DNA from: an uncultured archaeon
Lineage (GTDB): Archaea; Thermoproteota; Nitrososphaeria; Nitrososphaerales; Gagatemarchaeaceae
Reading direction: 5' to 3'
DNA: 64,000 bases
Assembly (NCBI GenBank): GCA_963799775.1
Contig: CAWCYD010000003.1
Span: forward strand, 864,001 to 928,000
This document shows positions 17,252-17,456 of this stretch, in pieces. A model generated the notes under the pieces. That model worked only from the letters and a program-made list of their open reading frames with translations, searched no databases and had not been told where the DNA came from. Numbering within the stretch: the stretch's first letter is position 1; every line of letters begins with the position of its first letter. Position numbers and translations under genes: made by a program.

Positions 17252-17456
17252 GGCCTTTTAGGGCCGGCTAGTTGTGCTCGGAGGCGCCCAAGATTTGGAT
17301 TCGGAAAAAGATCTGTGAGTTGTGAGCTCTGATTGTCTTGCGAACGTGAGCTGTGAGCTTTGAGCTGTGATTCCGGATTTCTCAGTTCCCAGCTGAATCG
17401 CATTCCTCTTCCACCCCTCGGCTTCCTCTTCCACTCTATTCCGGCTATCCTAGGCC
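17252..17456 (-). ncRNA. Predicted rod-like RNA closed by a bulge-helix-bulge; putative 190-nt circular RNA (17257-17446)
   Basis: 5' arm GGCC-UAGG-AUA-GCCGG (17456-17441) pairs with 3' arm CCGGC-CCUA-AAA-GGCC (17267-17252). Pairing continues inward through several short helices; the loop holds 7-nt repeats. Folded by hand. Confidence 0.7.
17312..17370 (-). repeat. Heptamer array TCACAGC-like (7 units plus 1 degenerate)
   Basis: TCACAGC TCAAAGC TCACAGC TCACGTT CGCAAGA caa TCAGAGC TCACAAC TCACAGA on the minus strand. Confidence 0.85.

Follow-up and report, generated by a model that had tools for sequence, protein, structure and literature searches.

A conserved structured RNA behind archaeal DUF6847 genes is closed by a bulge-helix-bulge motif and may be excised as a circle

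Downstream of a small gene of the DUF6847/DIP1984 family, an uncultured archaeon of the Gagatemarchaeaceae carries an RNA element whose base has the shape of a substrate of the splicing endonuclease EndA. The element lies on the minus strand of the stretch of DNA analysed here, 64,000 nt of assembly GCA_963799775.1 (contig CAWCYD010000003.1, positions 864,001-928,000; hereafter the window), where a bulge-helix-bulge motif occupies 17456-17252. It is a real, conserved structured RNA, homologous across 13 loci. We judge it probable, by a modest measure, that these elements form a new family of structured RNAs that lie in the 3' untranslated region (3' UTR) of DUF6847 transcripts and that EndA would excise and the host would circularise. 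Excision is predicted here from the geometry of the motif, from what has been kept of that geometry across distant relatives, and from the enzymes that the host encodes.

Results

A bulge-helix-bulge encloses 190 nt behind a DUF6847-like gene

An earlier reading of this DNA, made from its letters alone (the sequence-only reading), had described a bulge-helix-bulge here, and the helices and bulges read off the sequence confirm it at exactly 17456-17252. On the minus strand, an outer helix of 4 bp joins 17456-17453 to 17255-17252, a central helix of 4 bp joins 17452-17449 to 17262-17259 and contains a UAG at 17452-17450, and an inner helix of 5 bp joins 17445-17441 to 17267-17263. The two bulges, AUA at 17448-17446 on the 5' side and AAA at 17258-17256 on the 3' side, are each positioned 3' of their own strand of the central helix. 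The window thus holds all the parts of an hBHBh' substrate of EndA: 3-nt bulges on opposite strands, a central helix of 4 bp and a helix on either flank. The minimum-free-energy fold reproduces the motif and also the inward pairings that had been claimed along with it. Cutting after the second base of both bulges would release 17446..17257, a predicted RNA of 190 nt, and the cut positions proposed earlier (17447/17446 and 17257/17256) do enclose that length. This cutting rule agrees with the host genome, because the intron that ARAGORN places in the archaeon's own tRNA-Gln (23 nt, from position 39) shares the motif layout and starts and ends after the second bulge base.

The gene that precedes the element belongs to the DIP1984/DUF6847 family by profile and by fold. 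Against a cut-off of 27 bits, PF20935 scores 27.0 on the N-terminal open reading frame (ORF) of the window and 30.2, 53.9 and 65.1 in homologues, while the NCBIfam profile DIP1984_fam (NF038048) gives 37, 66.2 and 75.6 bits, with its cut-off of 70 passed at locus L020 only. An AlphaFold model of the homologue from genome G007 (pLDDT 88) aligns with a TM score of 0.79-0.84 to PDB 3kdq, a protein from Corynebacterium diphtheriae whose function is not known. A PDB sequence search with the protein returned nothing beyond one chance-level match (0.056), and PADLOC returned no match for it.

The window copy of this gene is not intact. The listed ORF (17939..17445, 164 aa) matches DUF6847 over its first two thirds only, and the C-terminus of the family is encoded in another frame, which ends at the UAG of the central helix. 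Comparison with homologues reveals one extra base near 17504-17510, which puts the conserved C-terminus out of frame with the 140 residues of the N-terminal part; the copy would appear to be either a pseudogene or the result of an assembly indel. The sequence-only reading had assigned the UAG to a DIP1984-like gene as its stop codon. It was right about the family and about the UAG, which does end the frame of the homologous C-terminus, but the long ORF runs in another frame.

The element accompanies the gene in 13 intact loci

As the sequence-only reading had suggested, we looked downstream of homologues of the gene, and in every one of the 13 intact loci the gene is followed by a homologous element whose basal architecture is the same and which shows compensatory changes. 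In each of these loci, which come from Nitrososphaerales genomes and metagenome contigs, gene and element are on the same strand, and the predicted excised length is 177-221 nt between the cut sites. The relatives belong to the Nitrososphaerota/Nitrososphaerales and were found in soil and groundwater. They form a close group of seven loci (the window, G007, G012, G011, L017, L018 and L019, of which L017 is apparently the same contig as G029, with identical coordinates and score) and a distant group of six (G086 and L020-L024). Identity to the G007 protein is 59-75% in the close group, for those proteins that were aligned, and 32-38% in the distant group.

One model of the element was made for each group. 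R1, which represents the close group, matches 5 of 97 genomes of the family, once in each and always behind the gene; it failed to detect the distant group. R2, for which only the six distant loci were used, recovers each of the seven close elements in full (E 2.5e-7 to 0.014 in 94.5 kb). Two other matches to R2 were rejected, one in G040, which lies inside a 246-aa ORF of PAPS-reductase type as judged by eye (no profile was run), and one in G074, which scores 22 bits, is AT-rich and has lost the basal helices.

The gene is rare, being present in 3 of 201 genomes sampled from the order. Searches of the class sample and of the phylum sample each returned 1 genome of 401, the archaeon's own, and a tblastn search against plasmids gave no match; 29 further homologous proteins were found outside the 13-locus set. 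A fourteenth locus, G112 (L032 1500-1700, minus strand), has decayed, and what is left of it is a C-terminal fragment of the gene, the 5' half of the motif and a conserved internal hairpin, followed by unrelated sequence and a VapBC-like pair. Gene and RNA stay together in inheritance, relocation and loss.

The base of the element varies in sequence and keeps its shape

The 5' bulge is exactly 3 nt long, with the sequence A-N-A, in 13 of 13 loci. Four standard pairs make up the central helix in 11 of them, the other two (L022 and L024) having three pairs and an outermost mismatch. Twelve loci have an inner helix of 5 bp or more, and the outer helix measures 3-8 bp in most. Folding the sequences one by one gives the inner helix and an unpaired 5' bulge every time, and at least three of the four central pairs in 12 of 13. 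The motif had been called canonical, a term that suits the close group, where 6 of 7 loci have the strict form with a clean 3-nt 3' bulge and an outer helix of 3 bp or more, and that suits the distant group poorly, where this is so in 1 of 6 (L024).

Every basal helix shows compensatory changes. The inner helix appears as GCCGG/CCGGC, as GUCGG/CCGAC (with a U-G intermediate in L019), as UCGGG/CCCGA, as UCAGG/CCUGA and as UCGAA/UUCGA, and the central helix as UAGG/CCUA, AGGG/CCCU and GGGG/CCCC. In an unfitted alignment of the close group, 90.9% is paired, compared with 87.0 +/- 1.0 in shuffled alignments and 39-52% in slid registers, and 12 pairs are changed on both sides, compared with 6.0; 0 of 500 shuffles reach either measure. 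For the distant group the corresponding values are 87.0% paired against 76.2 in shuffles and 24-43% in slides, with 15 pairs changed on both sides against 7.6 (0/500). When all 13 are placed in a model-fitted alignment, 87.9% is paired against 70.1, and 22 of 32 pairs are changed on both sides. RNAalifold, run on plain MAFFT alignments, arrives at the same basal architecture in each group independently; when 12 sequences from both groups were aligned together with MAFFT it returned no structure, because the two groups are out of register.

Strand and reading frame

The element is always on the strand of the gene, and the canonical geometry exists on that strand only. The close-group consensus has 38 G-U cells and 8 A-C cells, a count biased by the structure having been predicted on the same strand, and consensus folds are more stable in sense than in antisense (-23.2 vs -17.8; -24.6 vs -23.3).

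In all seven close loci the central helix opens with the three bases of the UAG stop. In the distant loci the stop codon is UGA, UAA or UAG and ends 10, 36, 24, 27, 31 and 3 nt upstream of that helix. The description of the motif as lying at the stop codon hence holds for the seven close loci and fails for the six distant ones, and the feature that has been conserved is an RNA closed by the motif just behind the gene, not the placement of the stop.

The frame in phase with the UAG is free of stops through the element (17258-17449 of the window, minus strand) in 6 of 7 close loci; the spacings put its end, in five of the seven, at the UAA that belongs to the 3' motif half. This would be expected if the UAG were read through to make a longer DUF6847 isoform, or if the element contained a small ORF. 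We consider either form of coding extension very improbable, since residues are shared only where the nucleotides are conserved and no amino-acid conservation is seen, alignment gaps span 1, 2, 4 or 5 columns and are not multiples of 3, and the conserved nucleotide blocks are in different phases between loci. The distant group has 0-6 stops per frame, with no frame open in all six, and the U-poor sequence of the element itself lowers the frequency of stop codons.

The interior of the element matches no described RNA family

Rfam 15 has no match at gathering score in the whole window and none on the element at E values up to 5 in the 13 loci, its two listed matches lying elsewhere; the Rfam comparison that the sequence-only reading had called for therefore identified no described RNA. 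A tRNA scan of the window found 0 genes, so the element is not a tRNA in disguise. C/D boxes conserved across loci were not seen by eye (no dedicated tool was run), and a C-box-like stretch is present in G007 only.

The interiors of both groups have in common A/C-rich, unpaired motifs of the form UCA[C/A]AG[C/A]UC(A). The window contains four matches to UCA[C/A]AG[C/A]UCA where 0.70 would be expected, three of which overlap inside the element (Table 1). The distant group has, in addition, a nearly invariant hairpin some 85-110 nt into the element, with a stem of 4-5 bp, a 6-nt A-rich loop and further flanking pairs. It is present in all six distant loci (given for this feature as L014 and L020-L024) and in the decayed G112, and it is absent from the close group. 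In a second hairpin of the distant group, 6 of 7 pairs are changed on both sides.

Genomic surroundings and partial copies

Toxin-antitoxin genes surround the element: PIN, Doc and MazE-like genes by Pfam in the window, and RelE-like and RHH-like genes by eye at other loci. Two partial copies of its 3' end lie further downstream (Table 1). Both are truncated at the 5' side and share one 3' boundary, and a Doc cassette and a VapBC-like cassette stand between them. A search for the 5' motif half near these copies did not find it: only the full copy is free of mismatches, and the five matches with up to two mismatches compare with 3.28 expected. G007, G011, G012, G029 and G086 lack partial 3' copies and yield only chance-level matches of 18-23 nt. 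The partial copies look as if the 3' end of the element had been duplicated locally or had taken part in recombination.

Such copies might also be footprints of something that acts as DNA, either inverted repeats at the two ends of a small mobile element or an att-like or cassette-type site of recombination. That the two extra copies have the same orientation and are separated by toxin-antitoxin cassettes is consistent with this, as are the differing neighbourhoods in which the gene-plus-element module is found between genomes and the way homology between the window and G007 ends directly after the 3' half. We nevertheless hold a DNA-level element to be improbable. There is a single full copy per genome, the matches among the 97 family genomes always lie behind the gene, and five other genomes have no partial copies. 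All five matches to the integrase family PF00589 in the archaeon's genome lie at least 380 kb from the locus. The G-U pairs and the U-G intermediates of the helices indicate an RNA on the gene's strand, and the two bulges sit on opposite strands, whereas the extrahelical bases of integron attC sites are on one strand. One full copy and two local partial ones in the archaeon's own genome do not make a miniature inverted-repeat transposable element, and neither do extra copies that are 3' fragments without the 5' half, with no integrase nearby, make an integron-type cassette site.

Table 1. Features of the element and its surroundings in the window (positions are those of the 64,000-nt stretch)
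Feature	Position	Strand	Remarks
5' half of bulge-helix-bulge	17441..17456	-	predicted cut 17447/17446
3' half of bulge-helix-bulge	17252..17267	-	predicted cut 17257/17256
Predicted excised RNA, 190 nt	17257..17446	-	long imperfect stem with A/C-rich interior; consensus folds and model R2
Three overlapping copies of UCA[C/A]AG[C/A]UCA, heptad-like repeats in unpaired interior	17347..17370	-	motif count
U5 tract, paired with a GGAAAG-type stretch in the consensus fold (helix 7)	17305..17309	-	6/7 close loci, by reading sequences
DUF6847/DIP1984-like gene, frameshifted	17450..17939	-	PF20935 on N-terminal ORF; homologous C-terminus ends at UAG 17452-17450
AbrB/MazE-like small gene, divergent from the DUF6847 gene	18033..18194	+	same neighbour in G007 and L017
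Partial copy, ~73 nt of the element's 3' end with 3' motif half, 86% identity	16512..16584	-	sequence match
Partial copy, ~47-51 nt of the element's 3' end, 87% identity, overlapping the end of a winged-helix gene	15596..15642	-	sequence match

A winged-helix gene is present twice in this region, at 13169-13525 and 15250-15615 on the plus strand, with 96% identity over 300 nt. The second copy runs into the repeat at 15596-15642, which encodes its last residues. Further away, a 716-aa ORF at 10824-12974 (minus strand) resembles, by eye, an enzyme of NAD synthetase type that is interrupted by a large insert; the insert appears to have homing-endonuclease-like motifs and may be an intein.

Discussion

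The host is equipped for the processing that the motif suggests. Its genome encodes two EndA paralogues (PF01974, 92.2 and 79.1 bits; ORF lengths 187 and 201 aa) together with a single RtcB ligase (574 bits), and its own tRNAs carry strict as well as relaxed intron motifs. According to the portion of the study consulted, only the heterotetrameric and epsilon-2 types of EndA cut non-canonical motifs (PMC5829648); the presence of two paralogues would fit the heterotetrameric, that is permissive, type. No promoter-like sequence was seen by eye ahead of the element (no tool was run). In the pathway we propose, the element would be co-transcribed with the DUF6847 gene as its 3' UTR and EndA would cut both bulges after the second base. 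RtcB would then join the ends, giving a circular RNA of about 190 nt and a re-ligated mRNA in which the stop codon is untouched.

A number of observations weigh against this pathway, beginning with how common the motif is. A strict scan of both strands (Watson-Crick pairs only, 3-nt bulges, outer, central and inner helices of 4, 4 and 5 bp, and spacing 20-400) yields 86 motifs over the 2,470,806 bases of the genome, or about 2.2 per 64 kb, and three in the window including that at 17456-17252, so the motif by itself is no more than chance would supply. Nor is the fold unusually stable: its z-score in the window is -1.05 to -1.12 (25 of 200 shuffles do equally well at z -1.12), and single-sequence folds fall below -2 in just 8 of 13 loci. 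The shuffle controls for covariation overstate its significance, the sequences being few and related. The evidence for the strand is also mixed, in that antisense is the more stable orientation in 8 of 13 loci when sequences are folded singly, and the model-fitted alignment has 17 G-U cells, barely more than its 12 A-C cells. The frameshift in the gene suggests that the window locus may be decaying. Lastly, the four sequencing runs listed for this stretch are all DNA, with 0 RNA runs among them.

The frequency of the motif and the ordinary fold would suit a chance motif in an unremarkable intergenic hairpin. That explanation is hardly credible in the face of compensatory conservation in 13 loci and detection of the close elements by a model built independently of them; in spite of the chance-level frequency of the motif, we judge the element real because it is conserved behind homologous genes.

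The irregularities of the 3' side bear on a different question, namely whether this RNA is cut at all. In G007 the 3' bulge is of 2 nt, or equivalently a 1x3 loop; G086, L020, L022 and L023 have A-rich 1x3, 1x4, 1x5 or 4-nt arrangements in its place; and L021 has almost no outer helix. The U5 tract adds to these: in six of the seven close loci it precedes the 3' motif half by about 40-50 nt. Tracts of this kind are possible termination signals in archaea, and this one could act as a partial terminator ahead of the 3' half. The element may then be a cis-acting structure that stays in the 3' UTR, where it would protect against 3' exonucleases, terminate or insulate transcription, or bind a protein in cis, possibly DUF6847 itself, and the bulge-helix-bulge look of its base would be a feature of protein binding or of folding. 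Structure and covariation fit such an uncut element equally well. It would also accommodate a 3' side that in 6 of 13 loci does not conform to the strict motif, the U5 tract within the element, the want of RNA runs, and the A-N-A sequence kept in every 5' bulge, which an endonuclease that reads shape alone would not need. We regard an uncut structure as unlikely, while giving it appreciable weight. The exact spacing of a 3-nt bulge, 4 bp and then a bulge on the opposite strand, 3' of its helix strand, has been kept between loci whose proteins are 32-38% identical, and this is the spacing that EndA measures, whereas the rest of the stem varies freely in its bulges and its length. The host enzyme, moreover, appears to be of the type that the consulted part of the EndA study describes as permissive (PMC5829648).

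If excision by EndA is the right reading, the element has several partial precedents, and the comparisons below draw on excerpts of the papers cited. The nearest is the HVO_1309 mRNA of Haloferax volcanii, with a bulge-helix-bulge intron of 46 nt in its 5' UTR that EndA cuts in vitro and whose circular product was recovered (Schwarz et al. 2020, PMC7714728). Both are bulge-helix-bulge motifs in an untranslated part of a protein-coding transcript that leave the coding sequence untouched (PMC7714728). Unlike that intron, the present element is 177-221 nt long and lies in the 3' UTR, beginning at the stop or just behind it; it has conserved motifs in its interior and comes from another phylum, and its processing is predicted. 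The intron of the cbf5 pre-mRNA in Crenarchaeota likewise places a bulge-helix-bulge in a protein-coding transcript (Watanabe 2002; Yokobori 2009, PMC2738675), again in TACK archaea with an endonuclease of the heterotetrameric type. It interrupts the reading frame, however, and its removal is needed to make the protein, while removal of the element would leave the protein unchanged.

Non-coding cargo bounded by such motifs is known as well. The intron of tRNA-Trp is a C/D box sRNA that is released as a circle (PMC12558985), and it resembles the element as a non-coding RNA bounded by a bulge-helix-bulge in a host transcript, with circularisation seen there and predicted here. Its host is a tRNA and its cargo a known C/D guide RNA, in contrast to an element that matches no Rfam family. 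In the processing stems of rRNA, distant flanks form a long stem with the motif at its base and the enclosed RNA becomes circular, as we predict here (PMC7714728, PMC12558985); those stems enclose 16S and 23S rRNA, whereas this one encloses 190 nt of unknown role behind a protein gene. The omega RNAs at the 3' end of tnpB have circular isoforms in archaea, and the excerpt consulted reports that no bulge-helix-bulge was found there (PMC12558985). They too are non-coding RNAs that start at or overlap the 3' end of a partner gene, with circular forms that are known for them and predicted for the element, but the partner here is DUF6847 rather than TnpB, and a bulge-helix-bulge is present.

As for protein-coding transcripts in archaea, cbf5 and the HVO_1309 5' UTR are the only bulge-helix-bulge introns cited in the part of PMC7714728 consulted. 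The sequence-only reading knew of no earlier description of the arrangement, and our full-text literature search agrees: no account turned up of a bulge-helix-bulge element in a 3' UTR, nor of any RNA associated with DUF6847/DIP1984 (supplementary tables of circular RNAs were outside this search).

What the released RNA would do is a matter for speculation. Because gene and RNA travel and decay together among toxin-antitoxin genes, the RNA may work with or against the DUF6847 protein, possibly through its conserved unpaired repeats of the UCA[C/A]AG type. Type III toxin-antitoxin systems, ToxIN among them, place an RNA made of long tandem repeats ahead of the toxin gene, and the toxin is the enzyme that cuts it. 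The DUF6847 loci share with these systems a small protein gene tightly linked to a repeat-bearing RNA, whose processing is predicted here, and a place among toxin-antitoxin genes. They differ from ToxIN in that the RNA follows the gene; toxicity or RNA binding by DUF6847 would be conjecture, drawn from linkage and a toxin-antitoxin-rich neighbourhood. It is a doubtful proposal that DUF6847 and its trailing circular RNA make up a two-part module, toxin-antitoxin-like or defence-like, whose RNA would be matured by the EndA and RtcB of the host and not by its own protein. If that were so, it would be the first archaeal case of a functional circular RNA, encoded in a 3' UTR, that partners a protein; the activity of the module would be coupled to the state of host RNA processing, and the widespread DIP1984/DUF6847 family would gain its first functional handle.

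Excision and circularisation, if true, would add a third kind of bulge-helix-bulge to those in archaeal protein-coding transcripts, after cbf5 and the 5' UTR, and the first that is apparently built to deliver a sizeable structured RNA instead of repairing a message. The element would then offer a defined substrate for the permissive endonuclease of the Nitrososphaerota, a group with scant data on RNA processing, and it ties DUF6847/DIP1984, a family with a solved structure and no known function, to an RNA partner.

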